DNA of 64,000 nt from a virus (IMGVR_UViG_3300021255_002694), one strand, 5' to 3'. Counted from the stretch's first letter, positions 4,742 to 49,080 are shown. Notes: generated from the letters alone by a model not told the origin. Numbers and translations: made by a program.

Positions 4742-5774
4742 AGACATATAACTGCCCATTTACATTGAACCTTATTACTCAGGGGTGTGTGGTTATTAAA
4801 CCATGCTAACGGTATCAGTTGAATAAGACCGACTATGCAAACCTTACAAGGAGATCATAGTTATATTAAGGACGAAGTAGCTGACTAAGAGAGCCTAATG
4901 TCCAGAAATGGATAGATGGTAATACCGTGCTAACTCACAGCTTGTATATATATATATATGAAAGGTGGTGATTTAATTGAAAGACATATATGTAATAACT
5001 AATAAAGTGAATGGCAAACAGTATGTAGGTCAGACAAAAGTTGGGTATATTAAGAGATTCAGAGGTCATTGTTATTCATATAAGCGTGGAGTTCGGACAC
5101 TTATAAGTTGCGCTATACATGAGTTTGGCAGAGAAAATTTTTCTGTTTCGCTTATAAAATCTGTTCCGGATAAAGATGCAGACTTTTGGGAAATGTTCTA
5201 TATATGGTGTTATAAAACACACATATCTTGTGGTGGTTACAACATCACATATGGCGGAAAATCAAATCCAATGGATATCAAATATGCATGTGATAGACAT
5301 GATAGGGCTTGTCATTCAGATGAATTTATCGAAAAGCAGAGAAAGGCAAATACAGGAAAAAGAATGTCTGACGAGTCAAAAGAAAAGTGCAGACAAGCAA
5401 CGCTGAAAAATCTTGATATTTGCATAGCTGGATTTAGAGAGTATAACGAAAGTAGAAAGATACGAGTTGGAATGATTGACGATAGCGGAAATATTGTCAT
5501 GGAATTTGACAGCCTTTCAGATGCATGTAGATATCTCGGAGTAACAAAAAAATCATATACTGCATCAATAAAAAGATATGCAGATAAGTATAACAAGAAC
5601 GGTAAGCGTTCAAAATTCCTTGGTTATTCTTGGACATTGCTGTGAGAAGTCTATCGACTATCCTATTTAGGAGTAGGGCAGAGGATGAGTTACTGTCCGA
5701 AGTGTATGTAAACTGCATATATATATATGCAGTAAGATATAGTCAGTCCTTGTAGAAATACAAAGGGTACAACG
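4742..5774 (+). mobile_element. Group I intron (1033 nt) in DNA polymerase gene
   Basis: 5' exon ends GGGU and forms P1 (GGGU|AG...CUGCCC, U-G at the splice site). Terminal G at 5774, P10 AACU/AGUU, R-like UCGACUA (~5654) and S-like AAGAUAUAGUC (~5734). Splicing restores VQG|SSADLTKLA. Confidence 0.92.
4977..5645 (+). CDS. Intron-encoded GIY-YIG homing endonuclease with NUMOD3/IENR1-like DNA-binding tail
   Basis: DIYVITNKVNGKQYVGQT...R...E...GYNIT, KANTGKRMSDESKEK, EFDSLSDACRYLG. Confidence 0.9.
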   Translation: MKDIYVITNKVNGKQYVGQTKVGYIKRFRGHCYSYKRGVRTLISCAIHEFGRENFSVSLIKSVPDKDADFWEMFYIWCYKTHISCGGYNITYGGKSNPMDIKYACDRHDRACHSDEFIEKQRKANTGKRMSDESKEKCRQATLKNLDICIAGFREYNESRKIRVGMIDDSGNIVMEFDSLSDACRYLGVTKKSYTASIKRYADKYNKNGKRSKFLGYSWTLL

Positions 5775-6071
5775 AGTTCTGCTGATTTGACAAAACTTGC
5801 GCAAATAGAACTTTACAACAATGAGGAACTTAAAAAATTAGGTTTTAGAATGCTGATTCCGGTGCATGATGAAATTATAGCAGAGTGTCCGGAAGAAAAT
5901 GTAAAGCGTTGTTCTGAACTAATGAGCAAGTGTATGTTAGATGCCGGAAAAGACTTATGTGTTCCACTAAGTTGTGACGTAGCAGTATTTAAGAGTTGGT
6001 ATGGAAAAGAACTTGATCCTGATGCATATGATGATATGGATGAGGACGAGGATGAAGAAGAAAATTATTAA
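5775..6071 (+). CDS. polA: Family A DNA polymerase, exon 2
   Basis: SSADLTKLA, motif C VHDEII, VPLSCD, acidic C-terminal tail. Confidence 0.93.
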   Translation, partial: SSADLTKLAQIELYNNEELKKLGFRMLIPVHDEIIAECPEENVKRCSELMSKCMLDAGKDLCVPLSCDVAVFKSWYGKELDPDAYDDMDEDEDEEENY

Positions 6072-6089: not shown

Positions 6090-7181
6090 ATGGGTTCATT
6101 TTCTATTGAAACTGGTACATTGAAGTCTATGGTAACAAAGGCTTCAAAGGGTGCATCAAACAATAAGTTTAGTGCAATTACAAGTTTGATGAATGTTGTT
6201 GTTTCTTGCGGAAAGATTCATATTACAACAACTGATTCAAACAACTATCTTACTATTACAGATAGTGTTATGTCTGGTGATGATCTTTCATTTACTGTAA
6301 ATGTCGATATGTTTAGCAAACTTGTTGCTAAAACAAGCGTTGATGTTATTAAGATCACAGCAGATGATGATAAGATTTCATTCTCTGGTAACGGAACATA
6401 CAAGATTCCAATTCAGCTTGATGTTGATGGTTCTCCTATCAGATATCCTAATCATGATATTAACAATCCTGAAACATCTGGAACAGTTAAAGCATCTGTT
6501 ATTAAGAGTGTTATTTTCCATAATAAGCCATCATTGGCTCTTACAATGGAAGCACCGTATCTAACTGGTTATCTTTGTATGCCTGATTGTGTTATCTCTG
6601 CGGATTCATATAACATCTGTCTTAGTGAGTATGACATGTTTGATCGTGGTGTTCTTCTTCCGCCTGTAGTTCTTGAACTTCTTAGCATGTCAGCAGAGGA
6701 AGATATTTCCTACAAGATTTACGGTAACAACATTATGTTTGAAACTAACAGCATGAAATTGTTTGCTGTTATGATGGATGGATTTGACGATTATCCGGAA
6801 CAGACAATCAGAGGTATTTGTAACGCAGAATATCCGTCAAGTTGCACACTGCCAAAGAATGCAATCATTAGTGTAATTGATAGACTTTCTCTGTTCATTA
6901 AGGATAACGATGTTAATGGTGTGTACATGACATTCACAAAGAATGGTGTTACATTTGAATCAATCAATGGAAACGGTATTGAGACAATTCCATATCAGGG
7001 CAGCAATGGATTTACTGATTACACATGCTGTATTGGTGTTGATTCATTTAGAAAGCAGATCGCGGCACATTCAGGTGAATCAATCAATATTTATTACGGA
7101 AATGAAAATTCTGTTTCTATTATTGATGATAACATTACACAGGTTGTATCTCTAATGGATGATCCTAGACAGTCAGAGTAA
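6090..7181 (+). CDS. dnaN: DNA sliding clamp (DNA Pol III beta-like)
   Basis: 363 aa, beta-clamp-sized. N-terminal 'ITTTDSNNYL', 'SADSY' and 'DYP...ISVIDRLSLF' segments fit the three-domain DnaN pattern. Adjacent to the polymerase, with a clamp loader at 24.7-27.5 kb. Confidence 0.8.
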   Translation: MGSFSIETGTLKSMVTKASKGASNNKFSAITSLMNVVVSCGKIHITTTDSNNYLTITDSVMSGDDLSFTVNVDMFSKLVAKTSVDVIKITADDDKISFSGNGTYKIPIQLDVDGSPIRYPNHDINNPETSGTVKASVIKSVIFHNKPSLALTMEAPYLTGYLCMPDCVISADSYNICLSEYDMFDRGVLLPPVVLELLSMSAEEDISYKIYGNNIMFETNSMKLFAVMMDGFDDYPEQTIRGICNAEYPSSCTLPKNAIISVIDRLSLFIKDNDVNGVYMTFTKNGVTFESINGNGIETIPYQGSNGFTDYTCCIGVDSFRKQIAAHSGESINIYYGNENSVSIIDDNITQVVSLMDDPRQSE

Positions 7182-18497: not shown

Positions 18498-18504
18498 TTC
18501 AATA

Positions 18505-24703: not shown

Positions 24704-25729
24704 ATGTCAACATTAGCTGTTAAATACAGACCTCAAACATTTGATGATGTTGTTGAGCAGAATGTTATTAAAGCTATTTTAACAAATCAGATTTCTAGCG
24801 GAAATGTTAAGAATTGTTATTTATTCTGCGGTCCAGCCGGATGCGGAAAAACGACGTCTGCGAGGTTATTTGCAAAGAAGTTAAATGGTTCTAAGGATAA
24901 TATTATTGAACTTGATGCCGCTTCACACAGCGGAGTTGATAATTTCCGTGAACTACTAGAACAATCAAAACTGAAACCTATTGGAACACCTTATAGAATA
25001 TTTATCATAGATGAGTGTCACTCGTTAAGTTCTGCTGCATGGGAAGCGGCTTTGAAGAATTTTGAAGAACCAACTCCAACAAGTATTTTTATTCTATGTA
25101 CAACTGATCCACAAAAGATCAAAGGAACAATTCTTTCAAGATCACAGCGTTATGATTTTCAAAGAATTTCACATGCTGGTATTGTGAATAGGTTAAAGCA
25201 TATTATCGAATGTGAAAATAGCGAAGGATGTAATTATACATATGATGATGACGGACTTGATTATATTGCAAAACTAGCTGATGGCGGAATGCGAGATGCA
25301 ATAACAAGACTAGAAAAAGTTTTAGGTTTTTCGAGTCATGCTGATATTGAATCTGTATCAAAAGCACTTGGATGTGCTGATTATCAAACAATGTTTGAAT
25401 TGACTGAGGCTGTATGTAAAATGGATAAAAAATCCGTTATTCAGATAATTGAAACAGCATATGGTAATGGAGTTGATCTGAAACAGTTTATCAAGGATTA
25501 CAATAATTTTATTCTTGATTTAACTGTTTATGATATAACAAATACATTTGATTATATAAAAATTCCAAAGACTTATGATAAGGCAGTAAAATCTTTTAGC
25601 CGTCAAGATTTTGATTATTTCACAACACTATTAAACGAGATGATCAATCTTAATTCTGCTATTAAGTGGGAAACAATGCCGAAACCTGTTATCATCTCAA
25701 CATTTATACTTCTATGCACGGAGGCTTAA
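24704..25729 (+). CDS. dnaX: Clamp loader ATPase (DnaX gamma/tau-like)
   Basis: LAVKYRPQTFDDVV, GPAGCGKTT, ELDAAS, IIDECH, TILSRS, GGMRDA. Confidence 0.93.
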   Translation: MSTLAVKYRPQTFDDVVEQNVIKAILTNQISSGNVKNCYLFCGPAGCGKTTSARLFAKKLNGSKDNIIELDAASHSGVDNFRELLEQSKLKPIGTPYRIFIIDECHSLSSAAWEAALKNFEEPTPTSIFILCTTDPQKIKGTILSRSQRYDFQRISHAGIVNRLKHIIECENSEGCNYTYDDDGLDYIAKLADGGMRDAITRLEKVLGFSSHADIESVSKALGCADYQTMFELTEAVCKMDKKSVIQIIETAYGNGVDLKQFIKDYNNFILDLTVYDITNTFDYIKIPKTYDKAVKSFSRQDFDYFTTLLNEMINLNSAIKWETMPKPVIISTFILLCTEA

Positions 25730-25730
25730 A

Positions 25731-26582
25731 ATGTATATCTGTGGTCAGAAAAAATTATTATCAGAGGTAGATAATTTAATTGATAATAAAAAATTTCCAA
25801 GATTTTCAATAATTGTTGGTGGATATGGTTTTGGTAAGAAACTGATCTCTGACTACATTGCTCGTAGAATAGGTGCAAACTTTGTACCATGTGGAACAAA
25901 GGCAGAAGAAGTTAGAGATGTTATATATAATTCGTATACTTCAACAGAAAAGATATTATATGCATTTTTTGACTGTGATGATATATCTGCAACATCTAAA
26001 AACGCTTTGCTGAAAGTAACGGAAGAACCGCCGAACGATGCATACTTTATAATGACAGTTCAAGATACATCAAATGTACTTGGAACTATTATAAGCAGAG
26101 CAAGTGTTTTCTACATGAATCCATACACAGTTGATGATATAGCTGAATACACAAAGCATTCCGGAATTTCATTTGATGATGATGTGTCTAGGGTTGTGAA
26201 TCAAATATGTATCTGTCCTAATGATGTTCGGATTGCAAGTTCATCGGATATTAAAGCCGTTTATGATACAGCGGATAAATTTATTCAATATATCGGTGCT
26301 GTAAATCTTGCAAATGAACTTAAAATACCTCAGTCACTAGACATTAAAATGGATAACAGCGAAAAAATTAACACAGTAATGTTTATGCGTTGTATTCTTT
26401 TATGCTGTGCTGACATGATCTCACAAGAAATATCAAAAGATGATGTTTGCGTGTTCAGCAAGATTATAAGTGAGACAAGTAAAGCACTACATGAATATCA
26501 ATCTAAAGGAAGTAATAAGCAAGCTGTTATTGATAACTGGATTGTCAAAACGCACATGTCTGTATCTGGGGGTGTTTTCTAA
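25731..26582 (+). CDS. holB: Clamp loader delta'-like subunit
   Basis: Degenerate Walker A GGYGFGKK, NALLKVTEEPP, TIISR. Confidence 0.75.
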   Translation: MYICGQKKLLSEVDNLIDNKKFPRFSIIVGGYGFGKKLISDYIARRIGANFVPCGTKAEEVRDVIYNSYTSTEKILYAFFDCDDISATSKNALLKVTEEPPNDAYFIMTVQDTSNVLGTIISRASVFYMNPYTVDDIAEYTKHSGISFDDDVSRVVNQICICPNDVRIASSSDIKAVYDTADKFIQYIGAVNLANELKIPQSLDIKMDNSEKINTVMFMRCILLCCADMISQEISKDDVCVFSKIISETSKALHEYQSKGSNKQAVIDNWIVKTHMSVSGGVF

Positions 26583-27530
26583 TTGAATATTGTTGAATTG
26601 AAAAAATCTCTTGATTCAGGCAAAGTGGAAAATCTCTATATACTGACCGGAGATGAATACACAATATTGAATATTTATATTGATAAGATTTGTAGGTTAT
26701 CCGACGCTGATAGAAAGAAATCAGATAATGTTCTATCTGTATATAAAGGTTTAGGCTCTCGATCACTTCTATCAACGGATAAACAAGTATATGTTGTCCG
26801 TGATGATAAGGAATTTTTGTCAAGTGAGTCATTGTGGTCTGATATTGAAAAGAAACTTGCAGTCAGGGGTGCAATACTTGTACTTAAATACAGTTCTATT
26901 GATACTAGATCAAAATTCTATAAGAAGTTTTCAGATCATATAACTGTGTTTGATAGACTGTCAGACAATGTTCTTCTAAAGTATATCTTCAATGACATAA
27001 ATCTATCTAAAGATAATGCCCAATATTTAATTGATATATGCAATAAGGACTATGGTAGAATATTACTTGAAATTGATAAATTGAATAATTTGTCAAAGCA
27101 TTATAATATATCTCCAAACGATGCTTTTAAGATGTGTTTGAGCGCAAATGCAATATACATTGAACCAGATGGTCAAGTATTTGATCTTGTTGATGCTATA
27201 TTAACAAGAAATTATCGTGCTGTATACCCCAAACTAAGTGAGTCACGTAGGCGCGGCGATAATGAACTTTATATACTCTCTGTTTTACATAATAACGTAA
27301 AAAACATTCTTCAAATTCAGACATTCGGGAACTCAGATAATAAGAAACTAATGCAAGCAACAGGACTAACACAATTTCAGATAAACACATGTTCAAAATA
27401 CTTAAATAGATATACGTGCGAAGAACTTGTAAGATTTATGAAGTATATAAGATATTGCGATAAATCAGTAAAAGATGGAACAATGCAACCGGATTTTGCG
27501 GTTGACTATCTGCTTGTTAATGTTTTGTGA
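26583..27530 (+). CDS. holA: Clamp loader delta-like subunit
   Basis: NLYILTGDE, DTRSKFYK, EIDKL, VFDLVDAIL, DKSVKDG. Confidence 0.75.
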   Translation: MNIVELKKSLDSGKVENLYILTGDEYTILNIYIDKICRLSDADRKKSDNVLSVYKGLGSRSLLSTDKQVYVVRDDKEFLSSESLWSDIEKKLAVRGAILVLKYSSIDTRSKFYKKFSDHITVFDRLSDNVLLKYIFNDINLSKDNAQYLIDICNKDYGRILLEIDKLNNLSKHYNISPNDAFKMCLSANAIYIEPDGQVFDLVDAILTRNYRAVYPKLSESRRRGDNELYILSVLHNNVKNILQIQTFGNSDNKKLMQATGLTQFQINTCSKYLNRYTCEELVRFMKYIRYCDKSVKDGTMQPDFAVDYLLVNVL

Positions 27531-33991: not shown

Positions 33992-36154
33992 TTGGAACAA
34001 AAATATTCAGAATTTTTTGATATTCTTCCGAAACATGCTCTTTTACCTATAATCAGACTTGTTCCATCAAAGTTTACTAAGATTACATCTGATCTACTTG
34101 CGTATGTGTTCATACAGCAAGGTGTCGTAAAAAAGATTGTTCTTGATAATCTAAAAGAATCAGCGAACAGGATAGTCAAACAACAATTAAATCCAGTTGG
34201 TAAATCTGATGATAGTTCAGATATTATGTCAATGGATGTTTCAGATGAATGTAAGATACTGCTTGATAGTTTTCTGTATTTTAAGTCACGCTATGAATCA
34301 ACAATAACATCCGATATACTTACGGCATACGTAACTTATATAATGATTTCAGATCAGAGAATAAGTTGTTCTCGCTTTTTCAAAGACTGTTTATATGTTA
34401 AAGAGTATACAAATGTGATAAACTCTTTATATAGTCAACTATCTGAATTTGTTGGAGTTACGAGATCGGATGTTCTTATTGACTACGGGGAGTATTTAAC
34501 TGATCCACTCATATATAAGCACTATGACTACTACGGCAGAGATAGTATTGTTGAGGAATGTATTGACGTTTTATGTAGGTACAGTAAGGCTAATCTTGCT
34601 CTTGTCGGAAATGCCGGAGTTGGAAAAACAAGTATAGTGTATGAAATTTGTAATGTCATTTCATCTGATGCATGTCCAGATCAACTGAAAGCATATAATG
34701 TATTTGCATTAGATGTTACAAAATTGACAAGTGGAACAACATTTAGGGGCGATCTTGAAAAGAGACTTGATACAGTAATATCTGAACTTAAAGATCATAA
34801 AAACATAATATTGTTTGTCGATGAGATGCAGTATATAGTAGGAAAAGACTCAGACTCTAAAACATTGCAAGGTGCATTGAAACCATATTTATCTGAAAGT
34901 TCAAAAGTAATAGGATGTACAACAGAGGAAGAATATAAATCTATTGAATCAGATCATGCATTTGAACGGAGATTTACAAAAGTAGTTGTTCCGGAAATGA
35001 CAGTAGATGAAACAATAGATGTACTTATGAATAAGTTAAATACTTATATAAAACACCACGATGCATATATAGACGATGAACTTGTAAAATACCTTGTAAT
35101 GAAGTGTGATCTGTGCATAAGAAATAGGTATTTTCCAGATAAGGCGTTTGATATACTTGATAAGGCTCTTGTGATGTGTTCGCATAGAGATAATAGAATT
35201 GTGACAAAAGATGACATTGATCTTACAATAAATCAGTTCTGCAATACGAGAAGCGCGAATGACATTGAGTATGTGAATAATGCAGAAAAAGAGATAAAAT
35301 CTTTATTGTTCGGTCAAGATCATATAATAAAAAGTGTGTGCAACTATCTAAGAAGATATGCTTTACACGTAAATGATCATGAAAAACCTATAGCAAATCT
35401 GTTATTTGTAGGTCCAACTGGAACAGGAAAAACGGAACTATGTATTCAGATCGCAAAGAAGTTTTTTACTGACGAAAGTTTTATACGGTATGATATGTCG
35501 GAGTTTATGGAACCTCATTCTGTTTCAAAGATAGTAGGTTCTCCGCCAGGATATGTTGGATATGATCGCGGCGGATCACTAACTGAAAAGGTAAAACATA
35601 ATCCATATTCGATAGTGTTGTTTGATGAAATTGAAAAGGCGCATAAAGATGTTGTCAATATCTTATTGCAAATTATGGATGATGGCAGACTGACAGATTC
35701 TTTTGGAACAACAGTAGATTTTAGAAATTGCATCATTGTAATGACTTCTAATATTGGATGTAAAGAGTACATGAATAAAAATCCACTTGGATTTTCTGAC
35801 AACGTAAAAACGGATAAATCAATAATCCGCAAATCTTTAATGGATTTTTTCGCACCGGAATTTCTAAATAGATTAGATGATATAATGTACTTTAATCCAA
35901 TAACAAGCGATATATTTGATAGCATATTCAATAAAAATGTAAGATGTTTTATTGATCGCTATAAAAACGAGGGAATAACACTTGATATTGATGAAAACAC
36001 ACTCAGTTCACTGAAAACTTTATGTTTTAATGAGAAGAATGGTGTCAGATATATTAAAAATAAGATCGCACAAAAATTAGAACCGTATATATTTGATTCA
36101 ATAAGTTCTGGCAGTAAGTTCATAAAACTTAATAATCTTGATTTTAAGGAGTAA
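33992..36154 (+). CDS. ClpA/ClpC-type double AAA+ ATPase
   Basis: GNAGVGKT, FVDE, AFERRF, RYFPDKA, GPTGTGKT, DMSEF, PPGYVGY, FDEIEKAH, PLGF loop. Confidence 0.92.
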   Translation: MEQKYSEFFDILPKHALLPIIRLVPSKFTKITSDLLAYVFIQQGVVKKIVLDNLKESANRIVKQQLNPVGKSDDSSDIMSMDVSDECKILLDSFLYFKSRYESTITSDILTAYVTYIMISDQRISCSRFFKDCLYVKEYTNVINSLYSQLSEFVGVTRSDVLIDYGEYLTDPLIYKHYDYYGRDSIVEECIDVLCRYSKANLALVGNAGVGKTSIVYEICNVISSDACPDQLKAYNVFALDVTKLTSGTTFRGDLEKRLDTVISELKDHKNIILFVDEMQYIVGKDSDSKTLQGALKPYLSESSKVIGCTTEEEYKSIESDHAFERRFTKVVVPEMTVDETIDVLMNKLNTYIKHHDAYIDDELVKYLVMKCDLCIRNRYFPDKAFDILDKALVMCSHRDNRIVTKDDIDLTINQFCNTRSANDIEYVNNAEKEIKSLLFGQDHIIKSVCNYLRRYALHVNDHEKPIANLLFVGPTGTGKTELCIQIAKKFFTDESFIRYDMSEFMEPHSVSKIVGSPPGYVGYDRGGSLTEKVKHNPYSIVLFDEIEKAHKDVVNILLQIMDDGRLTDSFGTTVDFRNCIIVMTSNIGCKEYMNKNPLGFSDNVKTDKSIIRKSLMDFFAPEFLNRLDDIMYFNPITSDIFDSIFNKNVRCFIDRYKNEGITLDIDENTLSSLKTLCFNEKNGVRYIKNKIAQKLEPYIFDSISSGSKFIKLNNLDFKE

Positions 36155-39005: not shown

Positions 39006-39311
39006 ATGAAGTTACAAATAAATGAATCGTATGATTATAGATTATACGGAATTCCGTATAAGGATAGAAAGAAACTTGAATCTCTTGGATATGAAATGGA
39101 CGTAACCGCTGTCGCACATGAAGCAGATATTGGAGATACAGTAGAACTATATGATATTGTAACAGATGAAAGAGCAACTTATATAAAGAGAGAAGATATA
39201 AATGGTAAGTGGATTCTTGCTTATAGATCAGGATATATTGATTATCTTGGAAAATCTAATCTGTACGTTTATGGTTCTTTTCCAAATGGAATTGTAGCAA
39301 GAATACTTTAA
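39006..39311 (+). CDS. Small protein with MKLQINES N-terminus
   Basis: GAGG RBS; shared N-terminal motif. Confidence 0.5.
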   Translation: MKLQINESYDYRLYGIPYKDRKKLESLGYEMDVTAVAHEADIGDTVELYDIVTDERATYIKREDINGKWILAYRSGYIDYLGKSNLYVYGSFPNGIVARIL

Positions 39312-39316
39312 TATAG

Positions 39317-39358
39317 AAATCACAATGTACTTGTAGTGTGCATTGTGATTTTTTTTTT
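39317..39358 (+). terminator. Rho-independent terminator
   Basis: AAATCACAATGTAC/GTGCATTGTGATTT plus long T-run. Confidence 0.8.
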
Positions 39359-39369: not shown

Positions 39370-39398
39370 TTGACAAATTGAGCGATTTGTGATATACT
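39370..39398 (+). promoter_or_regulatory. SigA-type promoter driving the Lar-MTase operon
   Basis: TTGACA-17-TATACT with TG. Confidence 0.8.
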
Positions 39399-39436
39399 AT
39401 ATATGGATATTTATTTTGTATATGGTGGTGAAATAT

Positions 39437-39679
39437 ATGAGACTTGTTGCAAATTGCCCGTTCTGCGGTGGATATTCAAACCTTGTTCGGAAAAGTAAAA
39501 CGATCGTTCATGGTGAAACCAAACAAACAACATATGTGGAATGTAAGGTTTGTCATTGCAGAGGTCAGAGATTTCTGCTTGATGATTTCAAAACTTCAAC
39601 TGAAGCTAGGGATGCTGCCGTTGAATCTTGGAATAGACGTTTCGGTTCAACTATTTATTTAGGTGTTGATGACGTATGA
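39437..39679 (+). CDS. Lar-family restriction alleviation Zn-finger protein
   Basis: CPFCGG...YVECKVC...AAVESWNRR. Confidence 0.75.
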   Translation: MRLVANCPFCGGYSNLVRKSKTIVHGETKQTTYVECKVCHCRGQRFLLDDFKTSTEARDAAVESWNRRFGSTIYLGVDDV

Positions 39680-40461
39680 ATTACATGGGAAGTAAGGCAT
39701 CAATCTCTAATAGCATTGTACCTATTATACAGAAGTGCATTATGTTTAGCGGATATGATCATTATATTGAACCATTTGTAGGCGGAGCAAATATAATCGA
39801 ACATGTTAAATGTAATATAAGAGTTGGTGCTGATATAAACAGATATTTAATCTCTCTGCTTAGATATTCACAACAGCATGAAATTTCAGATTTTCCAGAA
39901 GATATAACATATGAAGAATACTGTTCCGTTCGTGATGCATTTAACATAAAATCTGAAAAATATGAAGATTGGTATGTCGGATGTGTTGGTTTTCTAGCGT
40001 CTTTTAACGGAAGATTCTTCGATGGCGGATTTGCAAAACCACATTATTCTGACGGTCAACATAGAGAACCATATAAAGAACATTTAAGAAATCTCATGAA
40101 ACAAAATCTATCCGGAATTGATTTTATATGTTGTGACTATAAATCATTTAGTAATATATCTAATCATGTTGTATATTGTGATCCGCCTTATGCGAATACA
40201 AAAGATTATAACGGGAACAGGGATTTTTATTCAGATGAATTTTGGGATTTTGCAAGAAAGTTGTCAAGTAGCAATATTGTATTGATTTCAGAGCAAATTG
40301 CCCCGAAAGATTTTATGGAAATATGGTCACAAGATGTAAAGAGACAGATCAACACTTCGGATGATAAATTCACAGTTTCAGAGAAATTATATGTACATGA
40401 GAAATCATTTGATGCCGTGAATGAGTACGTAAATAAGTTTAAGATTAAGAGGTTATTTTAA
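39676..40461 (+). CDS. DNA adenine methyltransferase (Dam/D12, alpha class), MTase 1
   Basis: YMGSK, EPFVGG, YCDPPY; ends KRLF. Confidence 0.9.
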   Translation: MNYMGSKASISNSIVPIIQKCIMFSGYDHYIEPFVGGANIIEHVKCNIRVGADINRYLISLLRYSQQHEISDFPEDITYEEYCSVRDAFNIKSEKYEDWYVGCVGFLASFNGRFFDGGFAKPHYSDGQHREPYKEHLRNLMKQNLSGIDFICCDYKSFSNISNHVVYCDPPYANTKDYNGNRDFYSDEFWDFARKLSSSNIVLISEQIAPKDFMEIWSQDVKRQINTSDDKFTVSEKLYVHEKSFDAVNEYVNKFKIKRLF

Positions 40462-41765
40462 TGAATATTGTATGTGAAACTAAATCAGGTAAAATAGTAC
40501 ACGGAGATAACTTAGATGTATTAAAAGATATTGAAGATTCATCTGTAGATTCATGTATTTCTGATTTCCCATATGCGATTGAATTTATGGGTAAGAATTG
40601 GGATTCTATGAAGTCGTGGCATGACGGAGATGGAAGTCACAGCGAATTCAAAGGAACAGGTTATTCCGGTAAACGCAGACCTAATTTTTATCTAAACAAC
40701 CGTAAGGATATGGAGAATTTCTATGATTGGTGCAAGTTAAGATCAGATGAACTTATGAGAGTTATGAAATCCGGAGCATATGTTGCTATATTTGGTTCAG
40801 TTAAAACTAACCATAGAATGAAGTGTGCATTTGAAGATTCTGGATTTATTATTGTTGAAGAGACAGATTGGATTTACTTATCTGGTATGCCGAAATCACA
40901 AGATATTGGTAAAATGTTTGATGTTTCTGGAAATCCCGATCTTGCAAAAGTATATAAAGATTGGAAAACAGCCGGACTAAAACCAGCACATGAAACAATA
41001 ACAATATTCCAAAAACCTCTTGATGGTACGTATATCCAAAATATTGAAAAATATGGTGTTGGAGCAATGAATATAGGTGCTTGCAGAGTACCGATATCTA
41101 AAGAAGATATTGATATGTTAAATGCAAAAGCATCTAAGAATCCCACAACAAATTATTCTGATAAAGATGATAAAATTTATGGTAAGTATGCTCTTGATAT
41201 GGCAGTTCCGGCAAATCCAGATGGTAGATTTCCACCTAATATCGTAATTGATGAAGAAATTTCAAAAGCCATTGATGCACAGACTGGAATTTCTAAATCT
41301 AGCGGAGGAAGTGGTGTGCTTAGTAGAGTTCATAGATGTAGAAATACATATGGTGCTTTTGATGAGGATACAAATTCTAATTATGTTAATGATTCTCTCG
41401 GCGGATATGGAGATGTTGGTGGTGGATCAAGACTATTTCCAATTTTCCAATACTGCCCGAAAGTAAGTCCATCAGAAAGACTGTTGAAAAATGGAGAAAG
41501 AAATCCGCACGTAACACTAAAACCAGTAGATTTGATTAAATGGCTAATAAAACTTATAACTCCTATAAATGGATTTACTATTGATATAACAGCCGGAAGT
41601 TGTACTCATGCCGTTGCCTGTGAAACACTAAATATTGAAAATGGATATGATCTAAAATATTTAGATATTGAACTTTGTAATGATGAAGAAAATCCATATT
41701 GTGATGTAGGTAAACAAAGAGTTGAAGATGTTGTTAATACTATAAGGAATAAGAAACTGTTTTGA
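40461..41765 (+). CDS. DNA N4/N6 methyltransferase (beta class), MTase 2
   Basis: SDFPY, LKPAHE, GRFPPN, HVTLKP, DITAGS; ends KKLF. Confidence 0.85.
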   Translation: MNIVCETKSGKIVHGDNLDVLKDIEDSSVDSCISDFPYAIEFMGKNWDSMKSWHDGDGSHSEFKGTGYSGKRRPNFYLNNRKDMENFYDWCKLRSDELMRVMKSGAYVAIFGSVKTNHRMKCAFEDSGFIIVEETDWIYLSGMPKSQDIGKMFDVSGNPDLAKVYKDWKTAGLKPAHETITIFQKPLDGTYIQNIEKYGVGAMNIGACRVPISKEDIDMLNAKASKNPTTNYSDKDDKIYGKYALDMAVPANPDGRFPPNIVIDEEISKAIDAQTGISKSSGGSGVLSRVHRCRNTYGAFDEDTNSNYVNDSLGGYGDVGGGSRLFPIFQYCPKVSPSERLLKNGERNPHVTLKPVDLIKWLIKLITPINGFTIDITAGSCTHAVACETLNIENGYDLKYLDIELCNDEENPYCDVGKQRVEDVVNTIRNKKLF

Positions 41766-41776
41766 GGTGAAGTATC

Positions 41777-42649
41777 TTGCTAGAACTCAATAAAATATAT
41801 TGCACAGATTGTGTAAGCGGTATGCGAAAACTTGATAATTGTTGTATTGACCTTATAGTAACATCTCCACCATATGACTCTTTAAGAACATACAATGGGT
41901 TTAATTTTGATGAATCCTATCAAATTCAAGTAATAAACCAAATATTCAGGGTATTAAAAGATGGCGGTGTTGCTGTTTGGGTTGTTGGTGATGGAACTGT
42001 TGATGGTAGCGAAACTGGAACATCGTTCAAGCAAGCGTTAAAATTTATGGACATTGGGTTTAAGTTACATGACACAATGATATATCAAAAACATAATCCA
42101 ACACCGAATACAGGAAACGGTATTAGGTATCAGCAGAGTTTTGAGTACATGTTTGTATTCTCAAAAGGAAAGCCGAAAACAGTTCACTTATTACAGGAGC
42201 CAAGGCGAAATGAATGCGGAGATAGAAGAACCGTTAGAATGATTCGTAGGCAGAGGAATGTTGACGGTGAATTTGAGGAAGAACGTAAGTATGAGATAAA
42301 ACAAGTTGTTCCAAGATCAAATATATGGAATTACAAGGTTGGACTATATAACACAACATGTGATAAAGTTGCATTTAAGCATCCGGCAATATTTCCAGAG
42401 CAACTTGCCATTGATCATATACTATCGTGGTCAGATGAAAATGATATTATTCTTGATCCATTCATGGGTAGTGGGACAGTAGCAAAAGCATGTATGGTAA
42501 CGAATAGAAACTACATTGGATTTGAAGTAAGTTCAGAATATTGTGATATAGCATCCGATAGATTAAAAAATTTTAGTGCAGAATCATATGGTATACATAT
42601 TGATGATAAATCAAACAATAGGTTTGATGGAATGACAAAGCTGTTCTGA
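41777..42649 (+). CDS. DNA N4/N6 methyltransferase (beta class), MTase 3
   Basis: TSPPY, HPAIFP, DPFMGSGT; ends TKLF. Confidence 0.92.
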   Translation: MLELNKIYCTDCVSGMRKLDNCCIDLIVTSPPYDSLRTYNGFNFDESYQIQVINQIFRVLKDGGVAVWVVGDGTVDGSETGTSFKQALKFMDIGFKLHDTMIYQKHNPTPNTGNGIRYQQSFEYMFVFSKGKPKTVHLLQEPRRNECGDRRTVRMIRRQRNVDGEFEEERKYEIKQVVPRSNIWNYKVGLYNTTCDKVAFKHPAIFPEQLAIDHILSWSDENDIILDPFMGSGTVAKACMVTNRNYIGFEVSSEYCDIASDRLKNFSAESYGIHIDDKSNNRFDGMTKLF

Positions 42650-42695
42650 TATGTAATACTTTTGTGGAAAATATGTGAAAAAAGAGGTTGTTCTA

Positions 42696-43442
42696 ATGAA
42701 TATATTGATTGCGTGTGAAGAGTCGCAGAAAGTATGTTCTGAATTCAGAAAACTAGGACATGTAGCATATTCGTGTGATATTCAAGAACCATCGGGAGGA
42801 CATCCAGAGTGGCATATATTGGGAGATGCATTAGAAATTTTGAACACAACAACCGATGGAGTTGTATTTAATACAATGGACGGGAAATCACACCATATTC
42901 CGAAATGGGATTTGTTGATTGCGCATCCACCGTGTACATATCTCTCGAACGCAGGAGCTTGTCGGCTTTATCCACACAAAGGAGAGTTGAATCTGGAGCG
43001 GTATGAAAAGGGACTTAATGCAAAGGAATTCTTTATGAAATTCTACAATGCAGACATTGAACACATTGCGGTTGAGAATCCTATCCCATCAAAAGTGTTT
43101 GAACTGCCAAACTGTACGCAAATTATTCAGCCTTATGAGTACGGTCATCCGTATACAAAGAAAACGTGCTTATGGTTGAAGGGACTTCCGAAACTTAAAC
43201 CGACAGATATTGTGGAGCCAATAGGTCCGTGGGTATGCGGCAATGTACAGATTTGGAAAAAGCAAGCTGCAAAAGGTACAGTAATTGGCAAGGAAAAGGA
43301 TGCAAAACATAGATCAAAGACATTTGATGGGATTGCCAAAGCAATGGCTACTCAATGGTCGAATTTTTGTGAATTATCAAAAGATCAGCAGAAGCAAATT
43401 TTATGTAAAATATATAATAACAATTATAAAAGATTGTTCTGA
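42696..43442 (+). CDS. Phage-type DNA cytosine-C5 methyltransferase, MTase 4
   Basis: LIACEES, AHPPCTYLS (catalytic PC), VENP, RSKTF.GIA.AMA.QW; ends KRLF. Confidence 0.8.
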   Translation: MNILIACEESQKVCSEFRKLGHVAYSCDIQEPSGGHPEWHILGDALEILNTTTDGVVFNTMDGKSHHIPKWDLLIAHPPCTYLSNAGACRLYPHKGELNLERYEKGLNAKEFFMKFYNADIEHIAVENPIPSKVFELPNCTQIIQPYEYGHPYTKKTCLWLKGLPKLKPTDIVEPIGPWVCGNVQIWKKQAAKGTVIGKEKDAKHRSKTFDGIAKAMATQWSNFCELSKDQQKQILCKIYNNNYKRLF

Positions 43443-43452
43443 GGTGTAAAGA

Positions 43453-44211
43453 ATGTCAAATCTATACAATATTGATTGCGTTGATTTCATGTCTGATGCA
43501 TTAGATAGGCATGTGAAATATGATTACTGTATTACATCTCCACCATATAATATGAATTTAAGGGTTCGTGATGGTAAGTATATTTCAAGATCACCTATGC
43601 AAACAAACTATAATGAGTTTTCAAAGAAGTATAATAATTATGGTGATGATTTGACAATGGAAGAATACTTCAACTTCTTGGATTTGGTTATAGAGAAATT
43701 GTTAAAACTGTGTAAAATAACATTTTTCAATATACAGATGATAACAGGTAATAAGATTGCACTTATGCAAATACTCGGAAAATATGCAGATAATATAAAA
43801 GATATTATTATATGGGATAAATGCACCGCGCAACCAGCAATGCATGAAAATATACTGAATAGTCAGTTTGAGTTTATTATCGTATTTGATTCAGAGAAAC
43901 CTTATAACAGAGCATTTGATTACTCAAATTTTGATCGCGGTACAGAAACAAATGTGTGGAGAATACAAAGACAGACGAATAAATATAACAAAGCATCTTT
44001 TCCGGAAGAACTTGTTTTAAGGATAATTAAAGATTTTACCAAAGATGGCGAAACTGTATTTGATCCATTTATGGGTTCAGGAACAACCGGAATTGTTTGT
44101 TCAAAGATGAATAGAAATTTTGTCGGATGCGAACTTGATACAAATATGTTTGAAATTGCAAAGAATAGAATAGAGAATCAAGAAAAAATTAGTAAGTCGA
44201 GGTTATTCTAA
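43453..44211 (+). CDS. DNA N4/N6 methyltransferase (beta class), MTase 5
   Basis: TSPPYN, ASFP, DPFMGSGT; ends SRLF. Confidence 0.92.
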   Translation: MSNLYNIDCVDFMSDALDRHVKYDYCITSPPYNMNLRVRDGKYISRSPMQTNYNEFSKKYNNYGDDLTMEEYFNFLDLVIEKLLKLCKITFFNIQMITGNKIALMQILGKYADNIKDIIIWDKCTAQPAMHENILNSQFEFIIVFDSEKPYNRAFDYSNFDRGTETNVWRIQRQTNKYNKASFPEELVLRIIKDFTKDGETVFDPFMGSGTTGIVCSKMNRNFVGCELDTNMFEIAKNRIENQEKISKSRLF

Positions 44212-44212
44212 A

Positions 44213-45028
44213 ATGAGTGTTCAGCTATACAATGATGATTGTATAAACGTACTTAGAAACATGGATGGCTGTACAGTAGACTTGACAGTTACATCACCAC
44301 CGTATGATAATTTAAGAGAATATAACGGAAACATAAGTAACTGGAATTTTGATAAGTTTAAGTTGGTTGCCAATGAACTTTATAGAGTTACGCGAAATGG
44401 CGGAGTTGTTGTCTGGATAATCTCTGATGCAACTATAGATGGAACAGAAACAGGAACTTCATTTAATCATGCTCTGTATTTTAAGAGTATTGGTTTTAAT
44501 CTACATGATACAATGATCTGGCACAAACCAAATCCAATGCCGAGAGATACAAGAATACCTAGATACTGGCAGTCGTTTGAGTACATGTTTATATTGTCAA
44601 AAGGCAAACCTGATCATTTTACATTTCTAATGGAAGATTCAAAACATGCCGGAAAATCATCTGTATTTCATCAAAGAAATCCAGACGGTAGCATGAGAGA
44701 TGATAGGAAAATAGTTACATCTAATAATGTGTGCAAGGAAAAGAAGCCACTTGGAAATGTTTGGTCTATAAACACAATAGCGTCAAATAGCGAGAAAACA
44801 GGGCATCCTGCACAATTTCCGGTACAACTAGCGCAAGATCATGTTGTATCTTGGTCTTATGAAAATGATGTTGTTTTGGATTGTTTTATGGGTTCTGGAA
44901 CAACAGGTGTTGCTTGTGTAAAAACAAAAAGAAATTTCATTGGAATTGAACTAGATGAATCATATTTTAATATAGCAAAGGATAGAATATGTCAAGAGGA
45001 AAAACAGCTAAAGTCAAAATTATTTTGA
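44213..45028 (+). CDS. DNA N4/N6 methyltransferase (beta class), MTase 6
   Basis: TSPPY, HPAQFP, DCFMGSGT; ends SKLF. Confidence 0.92.
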   Translation: MSVQLYNDDCINVLRNMDGCTVDLTVTSPPYDNLREYNGNISNWNFDKFKLVANELYRVTRNGGVVVWIISDATIDGTETGTSFNHALYFKSIGFNLHDTMIWHKPNPMPRDTRIPRYWQSFEYMFILSKGKPDHFTFLMEDSKHAGKSSVFHQRNPDGSMRDDRKIVTSNNVCKEKKPLGNVWSINTIASNSEKTGHPAQFPVQLAQDHVVSWSYENDVVLDCFMGSGTTGVACVKTKRNFIGIELDESYFNIAKDRICQEEKQLKSKLF

Positions 45029-45042
45029 GGTGAATTATATAA

Positions 45043-46644
45043 ATGTTTAAAATTATAAATGGAAATATGCTAGAAGAATTAGATAAAATGGAAGAAAATA
45101 GCGTTGGTAGTATTGTAACTGATCCACCATATGAAATCAATTTTATGAATAATGGTTGGGATAATGCCGGAGTTGCATTTTCTGCTGAGACATGGAAGAA
45201 GTGTCTAAGAGTTCTAAAGCCTGGTGGTTATCTTTTATCATTTGCCGCAGCAAGAACTCAGCATAGAATCGCATGTGCTATTGAAGATGCTGGATTTGAG
45301 ATAAGAGATACTATTATGTGGCTTTATGGTAGTGGGTTTCCTAAATCAATGGATATATCTAAACAGCTAGATAAGCGTGGAGCAAATAATACAAGCACAA
45401 TATGCGATATTATTCATAACAGACGAGTTGAATTAGGTTTAACTCTAAAAGACATTGACGAGTATGTTGGAACAAATGGTATGGCATTGCATTGGGAAAA
45501 CGGTAGAAGGGGTATAACTCCTGAAAATTTTAATAAGCTAATCAAATTATTGAAAATAGATGCTGATGAAGCATTTAGTGCTTGCAGAGATATAGTAGGA
45601 CAAGTAGAAAAAACTGAGAGTTACCGATACAAAAACAACAATGTGTATCAAACAAACGGTAATGAGGACAAGGTGTTGTTAGATATAACAGTGCCAAAGA
45701 CAGACTTAGCAAAACATTGGGAAGGATATGGAACATCTTTAAAGCCTGCGTATGAACCTATTATAGTAGCAAGAAAACCTCTGTGCGGTACAGTTGCAGA
45801 TAATGTTATGACATACGGTGTTGGTGGAATTAACATTGATGAATGTCGTATCCCGTTTGAAACAACTCCGAATCCGGCAACTAATCCTCTATATCGTTTG
45901 CAGAATGGATACAAGACAACAGCAAATGCGAACACAGGAGATGGTGTTGTGTCTTTTGGAACAAGCCATAATGAAACAAACCCATCTGGAAGATTTCCTG
46001 CAAATGTAATTCTTACCTATGATGATTCTGATTTTGATGAGGTTTGCGGTGGTTTTCCAGACACAAAAAGCGGAAAGGCTGTTCGTCATAATTCTGGTGG
46101 ATGTACTTTCGGCGGAGATAAGAAGAAACCGCCAATGGAAGATTTAGGCTACGATGACGGTGGAGGATCTGCCGCAAGATATTTTTATTGTGCAAAGGCA
46201 TCTAAGCGTGATCGTGATGAGGGGTTAGATGATCTACCTACAAAGCAAGCTGTAGGTGGTGGCGGTGGAATTGGTGATTATGTAGATGATGTAAACAGTT
46301 GTTCTGGAAAATTTGGAAGTGAAAAAGCACCACATAAAAACTTTCATCCAACCGTAAAACCAACGTCTCTTGTTCAGTATTTAGTGCGTCTTGTAACTCC
46401 AAAAGGTGAAACTGTGCTTGATCCTTTTATGGGTAGCGGATCAACTGGAAAAGCTGTTGCGTATGAGAACAATGATCGTAATGCAGATTATAGCTTTATC
46501 GGAATAGAATTGAATCCTGAATACTGTGATATTGCACAAAGACGAATTGAGTTTGCTGAAAAAGATAAGACACATCTAACAGAACCTAAACAAAAGAAAT
46601 CTAAACCTGATGAAACAGTAAAGAAACAGAGCAAGTTATTTTGA
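45043..46644 (+). CDS. DNA N4/N6 methyltransferase (beta class) with inserted XRE-type HTH, MTase 7
   Basis: TDPPY, LKPAYEP, GRFPAN, HPTVKP, DPFMGSGS; ends SKLF. Confidence 0.92.
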   Translation: MFKIINGNMLEELDKMEENSVGSIVTDPPYEINFMNNGWDNAGVAFSAETWKKCLRVLKPGGYLLSFAAARTQHRIACAIEDAGFEIRDTIMWLYGSGFPKSMDISKQLDKRGANNTSTICDIIHNRRVELGLTLKDIDEYVGTNGMALHWENGRRGITPENFNKLIKLLKIDADEAFSACRDIVGQVEKTESYRYKNNNVYQTNGNEDKVLLDITVPKTDLAKHWEGYGTSLKPAYEPIIVARKPLCGTVADNVMTYGVGGINIDECRIPFETTPNPATNPLYRLQNGYKTTANANTGDGVVSFGTSHNETNPSGRFPANVILTYDDSDFDEVCGGFPDTKSGKAVRHNSGGCTFGGDKKKPPMEDLGYDDGGGSAARYFYCAKASKRDRDEGLDDLPTKQAVGGGGGIGDYVDDVNSCSGKFGSEKAPHKNFHPTVKPTSLVQYLVRLVTPKGETVLDPFMGSGSTGKAVAYENNDRNADYSFIGIELNPEYCDIAQRRIEFAEKDKTHLTEPKQKKSKPDETVKKQSKLF

Positions 46645-46655
46645 GGTGATCTGAA

Positions 46656-47549
46656 ATGGACTACATAAGAAGTCCCATGAACTATACCGGAGGTAAGTAT
46701 AAACTGTTAAATACAATTATTCCAGCTTTTCCAGAAAAGATTGATAATTTTGTTGATCTTTTCTGCGGCGGATTAAACGTAGGGATAAATGTAAATGCTA
46801 ATACAATATATGCAAATGATCAAATAAATTATATAATTGATCTATATAAGTATTTTAAACAAACAGATACTAAAGAACTTATTGATCTGATATGTAATAG
46901 AATAAAACAGTTTAACTTGTCACCGGATAATAAAGATGCATATTTGCAGTTAAGAGATCACTACAATAAAGATAAAGATATACTTGATCTTTTTATCTTA
47001 ACATGTTTCTCATATAATCATCAAATAAGGTTTAACAGTAAGCATGAGTTTAATACTTCATTTGGAATGAGAAGCTATAATGACCAGATTGAACAAAATC
47101 TGATTGAATTCTGCAATGCGCTGAGATCGAAAAATTTTGTATTTTCAACAAATGATTTTAGAGACTTTGATTTTTCAGTTTTGCATTCAGGCGATCTTGT
47201 TTACTGTGATCCGCCGTATTCAATATCAACAGCCGCATATAATGATGGTAAACGTGGGTTTAACGGATGGTCTGAAAAAGATGACATTGATTTGTTTGAT
47301 ATTCTTGATTCACTATCTGCAAAAGGAATATTGTTTGCATTATCAGATGTAACAAAGCATAAAGGAATGACAAACGAATCTCTTGTGAAATGGGCGGAAA
47401 AATATAATACGGTTTATATTTATACAGACTACTCAGGAGCAAGTTGTAATCTGAAAGATAGATATTGTGATACACAAGAAGTTCTAATTACAAACTATGC
47501 TGTTTCTGTTTTTAATGATGATACTGTTAGATCAAAGAAATTGTTTTGA
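46656..47549 (+). CDS. dam: DNA adenine methyltransferase (Dam/D12, alpha class), MTase 8
   Basis: SPMNYTGGK, DLFCGG, IRFN...FN, YCDPPY, EVLITNY; ends KKLF. Confidence 0.9.
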   Translation: MDYIRSPMNYTGGKYKLLNTIIPAFPEKIDNFVDLFCGGLNVGINVNANTIYANDQINYIIDLYKYFKQTDTKELIDLICNRIKQFNLSPDNKDAYLQLRDHYNKDKDILDLFILTCFSYNHQIRFNSKHEFNTSFGMRSYNDQIEQNLIEFCNALRSKNFVFSTNDFRDFDFSVLHSGDLVYCDPPYSISTAAYNDGKRGFNGWSEKDDIDLFDILDSLSAKGILFALSDVTKHKGMTNESLVKWAEKYNTVYIYTDYSGASCNLKDRYCDTQEVLITNYAVSVFNDDTVRSKKLF

Positions 47550-47561
47550 GGTGGTAAACAA

Positions 47562-48179
47562 ATGTTGTTTGAATTAAACAATTTATATAATATAGATTGC
47601 ATGGTTGCCTTAAAAGATTTTCCAGATAACTATTTTGATATTGCTATTGTTGATCCGCCTTATGGACTTCCAGAAGAATCTACACATCACAGAGGATTCT
47701 TAAAAGATCGGATATTAAACGCAGATGATATACATGAGTGGGATGTTGCTCCAACAAAAGAATATTTTGATGAATTATTTAGAGTTAGTAAGAATCAGAT
47801 AATTTGGGGCGGTCAGCATTTTGATCTTCCGCCTACAAGATGTGTTGTATGTTGGGATAAATGTCAGCCTTGGGAAAACTTCTCTCAGGTTGAAATTGCA
47901 TGGACTTCATACAATAAACCTGAGAAGTTGTTTCGATTTGATAACAGAACAACGAAGAAAGTTCATCCGACACAGAAGCCTGTTGAATTATATGCATATC
48001 TTCTAAACACATTTGCGAAAAAAGGAATGAAGATACTTGATACACATGTTGGAAGTGGATCAAGTATCATTGCATGTAAGCAATTTGGGTGTGATTTTAT
48101 TGGATTTGAGATCAATAAAAAATACTTCAATATAGCTATGGATAGAATATCTAAATCTATAGAGAAGAAATTGTTTTGA
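47562..48179 (+). CDS. DNA N6-adenine methyltransferase (beta class), MTase 9
   Basis: VDPPY, HPTQKP, DTHVGSGS; ends KKLF. Confidence 0.92.
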   Translation: MLFELNNLYNIDCMVALKDFPDNYFDIAIVDPPYGLPEESTHHRGFLKDRILNADDIHEWDVAPTKEYFDELFRVSKNQIIWGGQHFDLPPTRCVVCWDKCQPWENFSQVEIAWTSYNKPEKLFRFDNRTTKKVHPTQKPVELYAYLLNTFAKKGMKILDTHVGSGSSIIACKQFGCDFIGFEINKKYFNIAMDRISKSIEKKLF

Positions 48180-48189
48180 GGTGTACGGA

Positions 48190-49080
48190 ATGAATAAATG
48201 TCTTGTAAAATGGTCAGGATCAAAAAGAATACAAGCAAGCAGAATAGTTGATCTATTTCCAGATGAAATTGATACATATTACGAACCGTTTATGGGTGGA
48301 GCTTCAGTTCTAATTGAATTACTATTAAGATCAGATAAAGCAGTAAATAATTACATTGCATCTGATTTGAATGCTCATGTTGTTAGTCTGTTCAACCTTA
48401 TTAAATATAATCCGAGCAAATTGATTGAATCATATGAGGAAAATTGGAAGTATATGAACAGTGAACAAGATGGTAAAAATGACAGATACCTTGAAATACG
48501 TGATAGATTCAACGAAAACTTTTCACCAGAAGATTTCTACTTTTTAACAAAAACATGCTATACAGGTCTAATTAGATTTAACAGAAAAGGTCAATTTAAT
48601 GTTGGTTATCATTTCGGGCGAAGCGGCGAAAAACCGGATAGTGTTTCTGAATCAGTGCGTTTTTATTCTGATCTATTAAATAGGAAAAATGTTATTTTTA
48701 AGTGTAAAAGTTACAGTGAGATAAATCCGAATGTTGATGATTTTGTTTATTTCGATCCACCATACGATAATACAAAACAAACAATGTATCTAGGTGGATT
48801 TGAAAAAGATAAGTTCTTTGATTTCTGTAGATCACTTAGCTGTAAGTATGCAATTTCATATGATGGTGGAGTAGTTGGAGAATCAGCAAGTGCATCAATA
48901 CCGAGTGACATATTTAAAGAAGCTGTTGCTATTGATGCAATGAGAAATATGCGTCAAACTTTTAAGAGTGATAAATATAAAACAGAAATAACAAGCAAAA
49001 CTCTACAAAGATTTGAAATGCTTTATCTTAACTATGAACCACATAATACAGCAAAGCTAGTCTCACATAAATTATTTTAA
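48190..49080 (+). CDS. DNA adenine methyltransferase (Dam/D12, alpha class), MTase 10
   Basis: KWSGSK, EPFMGG, IRFNRKGQFN, YFDPPY; ends HKLF. Confidence 0.9.
   Translation: MNKCLVKWSGSKRIQASRIVDLFPDEIDTYYEPFMGGASVLIELLLRSDKAVNNYIASDLNAHVVSLFNLIKYNPSKLIESYEENWKYMNSEQDGKNDRYLEIRDRFNENFSPEDFYFLTKTCYTGLIRFNRKGQFNVGYHFGRSGEKPDSVSESVRFYSDLLNRKNVIFKCKSYSEINPNVDDFVYFDPPYDNTKQTMYLGGFEKDKFFDFCRSLSCKYAISYDGGVVGESASASIPSDIFKEAVAIDAMRNMRQTFKSDKYKTEITSKTLQRFEMLYLNYEPHNTAKLVSHKLF

Follow-up and report, generated by a model that had tools for sequence, protein, structure and literature searches.

The window analysed here, a 64,000-nucleotide stretch of DNA from a giant rumen phage (IMGVR_UViG_3300021255_002694), contains on its plus strand, from position 39676 to 49080, ten neighbouring and co-oriented open reading frames (ORFs) coding for DNA methyltransferases (MTases). 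Every one of the encoded proteins ends with lysine or arginine followed by leucine and phenylalanine ([K/R]-L-F), an ending that we call the tag (Table 1). An earlier note on this DNA had reported ten consecutive MTases with this ending and no restriction endonuclease among them; the ORF calls and translated ends agree, and all ORFs of the array are MTases. That note also sorted the enzymes into three Dam/alpha, six beta and one C5 representative. The first two assignments stand, with nine of the ten genes matching Pfam families above the gathering threshold (PF02086 in MTases 1, 8 and 10; PF01555 in MTases 2, 3, 5, 6, 7 and 9). The PPC and ENP motifs of MTase 4 make a C5 activity plausible for this enzyme, but the label is unproven because the protein has only its match to phrog_757 ('DNA methyltransferase', 7e-57) and finds no relative in Pfam (including PF00145), NCBIfam or the PDB.

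Elsewhere in the window, only one of approximately 81 called genes has the [KR]LF ending, compared to ten of ten in the array (Fisher exact p=1.7e-12), and this is the single additional case that had been noted before. The gene (32707-33087) codes for a conserved protein, and the tail is retained in homologs that are 71-97% identical to it. Its AlphaFold 2 (AF2) model, with a predicted local distance difference test (pLDDT) value of 48, consists of a small beta domain and a C-terminal half that is probably disordered (pLDDT <50). Nothing comparable was found in ESM Atlas, Pfam, NCBIfam or PHROGs.

The manner in which the tag is encoded indicates that it is a property of the protein. Among 33 tagged ORFs from six genomes, the basic residue is specified by AAA, AAG, AGA, AGG or CGG, the leucine by TTA, TTG, CTG or CTA, and the phenylalanine by TTT or TTC. 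Because five Lys/Arg, four Leu and two Phe codons are in use, the tag is conserved at the peptide level, which is what the earlier note had argued from a smaller selection of codons.

Comparisons with homologous enzymes indicate where the tail comes from. For MTase 4, approximately 80 homologs in IMG/VR end untailed at ...AMAEQWG, and the window protein runs 24 residues further; in a count of about 84 homologs, none has the tail. One tail-free homolog that is 76% identical resides in an unrelated 41-kb phage sharing no other gene with the window. Among the 120 listed homologs of MTase 10, [KR]LF is found on seven and a TLW ending on one more (P0007), and all eight rank among the nearest. Homologs of MTase 10 that are 44-98% identical keep [KR]LF on completely different linkers, as anticipated for a tag that follows a variable linker, and the distant ones stop at ESLYLK. 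Similarly, alignments of MTases 6 and 8 to most of their listed cultured-phage homologs stop 6-16 residues short of the C-terminus (for MTase 6, most end at residues 259-265 of 271; for MTase 8, all end at residues 281-288 of 297). Homologs of these enzymes reach their C-terminus 8-30 residues earlier, and the final three residues are fixed on a linker that diverges. In a sample of 80 unrelated metagenome loci, the tag occurs on 2 of 115 MTase-like ORFs, both on a single contig. These comparisons provide good support for the view that the tail is a lineage-specific addition to horizontally acquired MTases, and equally good support for its acting as a short linear motif, joined by a variable linker and lying outside the catalytic fold.

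Related contigs carry the same signature on their MTases. On four such contigs (L081, L082, L084 and L088), 18 of 19 MTase frames have a basic residue no more than three positions before Leu-Phe, and no gene other than an MTase is tagged. All five MTase frames of L081 and all six of L084 are tagged, and MTase 10 is approximately 83-86% identical in these two contigs. L082, at 47% identity, has MTase ends KKLF, RRLF, KRLF and KSLF, whereas L088 has TKLF, NRLF and KKLF together with one Dam enzyme ending in KTLW. In L084 (1897-4369), an N6_N4 MTase is cut in two by a 477-residue ORF, probably a mobile insertion, and the C-terminal fragment still ends in LRLF. L088 also encodes (1752-2213) a 153-residue protein with a faint match to DUF1653 and the C-terminus ...PVEDIPF. 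This end resembles DDDIPF, the C-terminal tip of single-stranded DNA-binding protein (SSB).

A 268-kb contig (L112), whose kinship with the window is weak because only MTase genes are held in common, broadens the range of tagged enzymes. It has a Dam enzyme and an N6_N4 MTase that both end in KKLF, as well as a Mom-family protein (PF25680) ending in YKLF and located beside tagged MTases (7421-8113 and 11410-16815). Since a Mom-family protein is tagged, the tag follows DNA-modifying function rather than S-adenosylmethionine (SAM) chemistry. IS605-type TnpB genes and a serine recombinase flank three untagged Dam genes on this contig. One ORF of the L112 locus begins with MKLTINE, and a window ORF at 39006-39311 begins with MKLQINE.

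The window encodes its own DnaN-like sliding clamp (6090-7181), which the earlier note had proposed as the partner of the tag. Its identity as a clamp is confirmed by phrog_947, by profile matches to beta clamps in the PDB, and by an AF2 model (pLDDT 97) of the three-domain beta/DnaN type with a template modelling score of 0.86 to Bacillus subtilis DnaN. Searching IMG/VR with this single protein gave no match. With close relatives of the clamp as the query, we recovered 46 contigs whose clamps are 26-46% identical, and surveyed 3 kb of flanking DNA. An LF ending, nearly always preceded by basic residues, is found on 37 of the 486 flanking ORFs, and in 14 loci the stop codon of a tagged gene lies at most approximately 40 nucleotides before the clamp start. 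In five complete clamp-family genomes (55-85 kb), basic-LF endings occur on 16 of 451 genes, versus 4 of 3103 genes in control phage loci (p=1e-11). Nine relatives examined, five with complete genomes, all carry both the clamp and DnaX.

Among the tagged proteins near clamps, names could be given to N6_N4 MTases, C5 MTases (PF00145), a class-I SAM MTase, DUF6884 proteins, DpdA-type transglycosylases and Nlig-Ia ligase-like proteins; several tagged ORFs in the flanks match no family. Over all genomes, the tagged proteins that were identified (Dam, N6_N4 and C5 MTases, the phrog_757 MTase, Mom, DpdA and the ligase-like protein) fall into DNA- or nucleic-acid-enzyme families. Tagged transglycosylases of the DpdA type (phrog_887), homologous to the DpdA proteins of Iggy and CAjan, occur in eight genomes. 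Where a DpdA-like gene is flanked by polA and the clamp gene, its product ends in KKLSLF, and DUF6884 proteins end in KK[VIL]SLF. The KKLSLF and KK[VI]SLF tails of some DpdA and DUF6884 proteins and the KSLF tail of an L082 MTase match four of the five positions of QL[S/D]LF. Two small tagged ligase Ia-domain genes sit among clamp-loader genes (Table 1), and their counterparts in phages Dp-1 (gp16) and phiCTP1 (gp60) have no LF tag. One relative (G006) has a second, frameshifted and untagged C5 MTase gene (L226:2760-3700, ending ...NHIYL), and the two intact MTases of this genome are tagged.

Among cultured phages, Dp-1 and Flasso have clamps of this family, and their DpdA proteins are tagged and encoded upstream of the DnaN-like gene; the CAjan, EC151 and ZHS proteins likewise end in an aromatic tail (Table 1). 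The DNA of Dp-1 carries dPreQ1 (PMC6884629). A paper on the Dp-1 host interactome mentions neither gp7, gp10 and DnaN nor a clamp. For the CAjan processivity factor (gp33), alignment to the clamp profile by hhalign gives a probability of 3%, and a relationship is not established.

Near the clamp gene, the family A DNA polymerase is interrupted by an intein and by a homing-endonuclease gene, and its C-terminal part has an added acidic tail (...DPDAYDDMDEDEDEEENY) that is not found in the phiCTP1 polymerase. An intein/Hint module (Pfam Intein_splicing and Hint) is also present in the UvrD-like helicase at 10422-12155. DnaG-type primases end in ...SLQEVFC (window 1-339), ...NLVEIF (L221:5627-6622) or ...NLQELF (L219:13050-14045), which are acidic-hydrophobic sequences, and DnaB-like helicases of this clade end in ...GTDIF or ...GTEVF. 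Judging from these ends, the primase and helicase C-termini may represent further tail-mediated contacts within the replisome.

The MTase array has a setting of its own. Because a strong terminator and a near-consensus promoter are followed by a lar gene in first position, this gene and the MTase block look like an early anti-restriction operon. The Lar-family protein is untagged and ends in GVDDV. A ClpA-like gene is located 3.5 kb upstream of lar and the MTases, and occupies the same place in L082. By analogy with E. coli, where restriction alleviation can depend on ClpXP, this gene may belong to an anti-restriction island. Farther away, the interval 15000-18800 has few ORFs and a GC content of 0.43, versus 0.33. 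A megablast search of cultured phages found no match for the window.

Table 1. Features of the window and tagged or comparable genes of other phages; locations without a contig handle are window positions.
Feature	Location	Strand	Assignment and remarks	C-terminus
Family A DNA polymerase, first part	1484..4768	+	Contains intein with LAGLIDADG domain	
Homing-endonuclease gene	4977-5645		GIY-YIG/phrog_314; splits polymerase gene	
Family A DNA polymerase, 94-residue C-terminal part	5787..6071	+	Motif C (VHDE); added acidic tail	...DEDEDEEENY
Beta-type (DnaN-like) sliding clamp, proposed receptor	6090..7181	+	phrog_947; profile matches to PDB beta clamps; isoelectric point (pI) 4.5	
Three-gene clamp loader (DnaX-like, delta'-like, delta-like)	24704..27530	+	phrog_5846, phrog_168, phrog_20214	
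Conserved protein, 126 residues	32707..33087	+	Function unassigned	NNNKKLF
ClpA-like double-AAA+ unfoldase	33992..36154	+	PLGF loop at ClpP-docking position; 158-residue N-domain without family match	
Intrinsic-terminator-like hairpin	39315..39353	+	16-bp stem then T run; closes upstream unit	
Near-consensus sigma-70-type promoter	39370..39398	+	TTGACA-17-TG-TATACT, 11/12 positions; consensus match only; precedes lar and MTase array	
Lar-family restriction-alleviation gene	39389..39679	+	TIGR03655, 1.7e-11 (above cut-off); phrog_599; first in operon	
MTase 1	39676..40461	+	Dam/D12 class; PF02086, 7e-18	KIKRLF
MTase 2	40461..41765	+	N6_N4 (beta) class; PF01555, 4e-18	RNKKLF
MTase 3	41777..42649	+	N6_N4 class; PF01555, 9e-44	GMTKLF
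MTase 4	42675..43442	+	phrog_757; PPC/ENP motifs; 24-residue added tail	NYKRLF
MTase 5	43453..44211	+	N6_N4 class; PF01555	SKSRLF
MTase 6	44213..45028	+	N6_N4 class; PF01555	LKSKLF
MTase 7	45043..46644	+	N6_N4 class; PF01555; inserted helix-turn-helix; ~30-residue polar linker	KQSKLF
MTase 8	46656..47549	+	Dam/D12 class; PF02086	RSKKLF
MTase 9	47562..48179	+	N6_N4 class; PF01555	IEKKLF
MTase 10	48181..49080	+	Dam/D12 class; PF02086	VSHKLF
Small stand-alone NAD-ligase Ia-domain protein	G006 26484-26822 (L227)		PF22745; among clamp-loader genes	KKGGLF
Small stand-alone NAD-ligase Ia-domain protein	G008 9532-9870 (L229)		PF22745; among clamp-loader genes	KKGGLF
Small stand-alone NAD-ligase Ia-domain protein	L220:8645-9106		PF22745	GNSLF
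Dp-1 DpdA (gp7)	L245:3793-4728		~600 bp upstream of DnaN-like gene	NRQRRLF
Flasso DpdA (Bacillus phage)	L246:7511-8407		~600 bp upstream of DnaN-like gene	SQGKLF
CAjan DpdA	L249:232-1152		Two genes from 'DNA polymerase processivity factor' (gp33)	MELF
EC151 DpdA	L247:214-1137			QELF
ZHS DpdA	L248:277-1077			QSLW

Taken together, we consider docking on the phage's own clamp to be the best explanation for the tail, and a somewhat probable one. The earlier note had proposed that each acquired MTase was given a clamp-docking tag; the addition of a tail to acquired enzymes is upheld, and the clamp as receptor is indirectly supported by tags located beside clamps of the same family. A terminal Leu-Phe on a variable linker belongs to the type that binds clamps, and the KKLSLF, KK[VIL]SLF and KSLF tails of relatives appear near-canonical. 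Co-occurrence of the tag with this clamp family over wide divergence, often next to the clamp gene itself, points in the same direction. Likewise, the acidic clamp (pI 4.5) and the basic tails, with a net charge of +1 to +3, seem suited to each other. For the E. coli clamp, Ac-Leu-Phe alone is listed as a ligand (PDB 4k3l). Co-folding of the window clamp (alignment A1) with residues 499-533 of MTase 7, in runs that had no controls, gave scores of 0.51, 0.19 and 0.07, which weigh neither for nor against docking.

In this proposal, [K/S/T/H]-[K/R]-L-F-COOH would be a short linear docking motif displayed on a flexible and fast-evolving linker, which the phage lineage adds to DNA-modifying enzymes taken from elsewhere. 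The receptor would be the hydrophobic peptide-binding pocket of the phage clamp, which is presumably loaded by the phage loader (24704-27530). Clamps left on new DNA could then concentrate all ten MTases on unmodified daughter DNA, so that many restriction-site motifs would receive their modification just after the fork has passed. In related phages, clamps might recruit Mom, DpdA and ligase-like proteins in the same way.

Several observations weigh against this proposal. First, the relatives were chosen through their clamps, and the co-occurrence rests on control loci of unrecorded clamp content. Second, phiCTP1 has a clamp of the same family, and the examined half of its genome encodes no LF-tagged protein. 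Third, the phage polymerase is untagged and ends in its acidic ...EENY tail, the other replisome proteins of the window are untagged as well, and three of the five Dam-class genes of L112 also lack the tag. Fourth, the window tags match QL[SD]LF only at the terminal L-F, with neither the Gln nor the first Leu present; as a consequence, only the subsite-1 contacts would be canonical. Finally, the host clamp might be the target in place of the phage clamp.

A docking hub other than the clamp, such as the family A polymerase, SSB, the helicase-primase, a replication-compartment scaffold or an assembly of MTases with one another, seems unlikely, although it is the alternative that we take most seriously. 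The tag behaves as a docking motif, with indirect evidence as to its receptor, and relatives have the whole replication module in common, not the clamp alone. Moreover, the acidic PolA tail, opposite in charge to the tag, suggests that there might be a network of tail-mediated contacts. However, a terminal Leu-Phe is the signature of a beta-clamp ligand, KKLSLF fits the clamp motif, tagged genes adjoin the clamp gene in the 14 loci described above, and in two of these loci a tagged ligase-like gene is part of the clamp-loader operon.

The argument from motif type applies equally well to the DnaN clamp of the host, which the tagged enzymes could reach if host clamps are placed on phage DNA, or for which they could compete with host clamp clients. 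There is a phage precedent in Mu MuC, which reaches the host clamp via a clamp-binding motif (bioRxiv 10.1101/2025.01.04.631326). We nevertheless regard the host clamp as an improbable target. Every tagged genome examined has its own clamp and loader, and a lineage-wide departure from the bacterial consensus is what a diverged phage clamp would be expected to favour.

An equally doubtful alternative is that the tail is a C-terminal degron for an AAA+ unfoldase or protease (host ClpXP or ClpCP, or the phage ClpA-like protein), serving to time or limit DNA-modifying enzymes whose activity is potentially harmful. ClpX recognizes C-terminal signals such as LAA of ssrA and RRKKAI of MuA. The tag resembles signals of the MuA type in its location at the extreme C-terminus and in its order of basic and then hydrophobic residues, and the window and L082 both provide a ClpA-like ATPase, with its PLGF loop, near the array. 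The tags here, however, are confined to DNA enzymes, and all nine relatives examined have tagged enzymes yet lack the ClpA-like gene, which rules out this ATPase as a general receptor. A degron also leaves unexplained why tags are restricted to DNA-modifying and ligase-like proteins, why they adjoin clamp genes, and why some tails read KKLSLF.

Least credible by far is a nucleotide-level origin, either as a ribosome-binding or translational-coupling context or as a scar of gene-cassette recombination: although TTYTGAGGTG, in which the stop codon overlaps the Shine-Dalgarno sequence of the next gene, occurs at six of the ten array junctions, TGAGGTG junctions are also present at other window genes whose C-termini are not KLF, which means that the ribosome-binding site does not bring the tag about, and given also that synonymous codons vary freely, that tags precede TAA stops and non-coding DNA and occur on isolated genes, and that the linkers have no common sequence, such an artefact is effectively excluded.

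The tag is real, it is general in this clade of clamp-bearing phages, and it is new to the literature searched, in which we found no description of the tail nor of phage or bacterial MTases, Mom or DpdA linked to a clamp through such a tail. A broader version of the clamp-docking proposal holds that the basic-Leu-Phe peptide is a universal plug-in adaptor of phages with DnaN-type clamps, by which acquired DNA-modifying enzymes ride the clamp behind the fork. We put this forward tentatively, as a reading that falls a little short of probable. It would cover Dam, N4/N6 and C5 MTases, Mom, DpdA 7-deazaguanine transglycosylases and ligase-like factors.

If true, the adaptor would amount to a general, modular 'modify as you copy' scheme against restriction, shared by phages as different in size as 55-kb siphophages (Dp-1, Flasso) and 320-kb jumbo phages. 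Docking on the clamp, if real, would account for the ability of a fast-replicating phage to modify many motifs over hundreds of kilobases before host restriction enzymes act, and captured modification enzymes would become effective by the gain of a few codons. Orphan MTases, Mom and DpdA would join the clamp 'tool-belt', and a simple sequence rule would pick out genes for replication-coupled DNA modification among those of unassigned function, for example those of the 32707-33087 protein and DUF6884. Furthermore, the tag could serve as a portable handle for directing enzymes to replicating DNA. The cultured phages Dp-1 and Flasso make the hypothesis open to direct test.

A close known parallel is found in bacteria, where partners of the beta clamp bind via QL(S/D)LF at their C-termini (PMC9690074). 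The clients of this clamp (Pol II, Pol IV, Pol V, delta, Hda, MutS/L and LigA) share with the tagged proteins a short, flexible peptide that ends in Leu-Phe and is often C-terminal, the use of one motif across unrelated DNA enzymes, and a clamp and loader encoded in the same genome. The two systems differ in that the bacterial consensus has Ser/Asp where the window tags have Lys/Arg, and in that the tagged proteins are DNA methyltransferases, Mom and DpdA, for which the literature searched yielded no description as beta-clamp clients.

A second parallel exists within a single phage. The C-terminal clamp-binding motifs of the T4 proteins gp43, gp55 and gp33 can be exchanged for one another and are attached by divergent linkers (PMC2988020), and the gp45 system thus resembles the tags in placing a similar C-terminal motif and a variable linker on functionally different proteins. 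In contrast to the basic tails described here, the T4 motif is hydrophobic-acidic; the T4 clamp is a PCNA-like trimer rather than a three-domain beta/DnaN protein, and it serves the polymerase and late-transcription factors instead of modification enzymes. Adjacent MTases of Citrobacter phage Margaery (L089:1477-3164) end in NNLESFL and LTLNDLM, which are loosely similar to gp45-binding tails. Because T2 Dam has no tail, the Margaery ends may be due to chance, and these ends together with the tail-free T2 Dam rule out an extension of the rule to T4-like phages.

A functional parallel is eukaryotic, since Dnmt1 is recruited by PCNA through a PCNA-interacting peptide (PIP) box (PMC9690074). As in the clamp-docking proposal, methylation, of the maintenance type, is thereby coupled to a clamp left on newly replicated DNA. 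DNMT1 is, however, a single enzyme with an internal PIP box (Qxx[IL]xxFF), whereas the window encodes a tagged battery of orphan anti-restriction MTases. Under the broader adaptor reading, such tagging would be the first case in a prokaryote or virus that corresponds to DNMT1-PCNA coupling.

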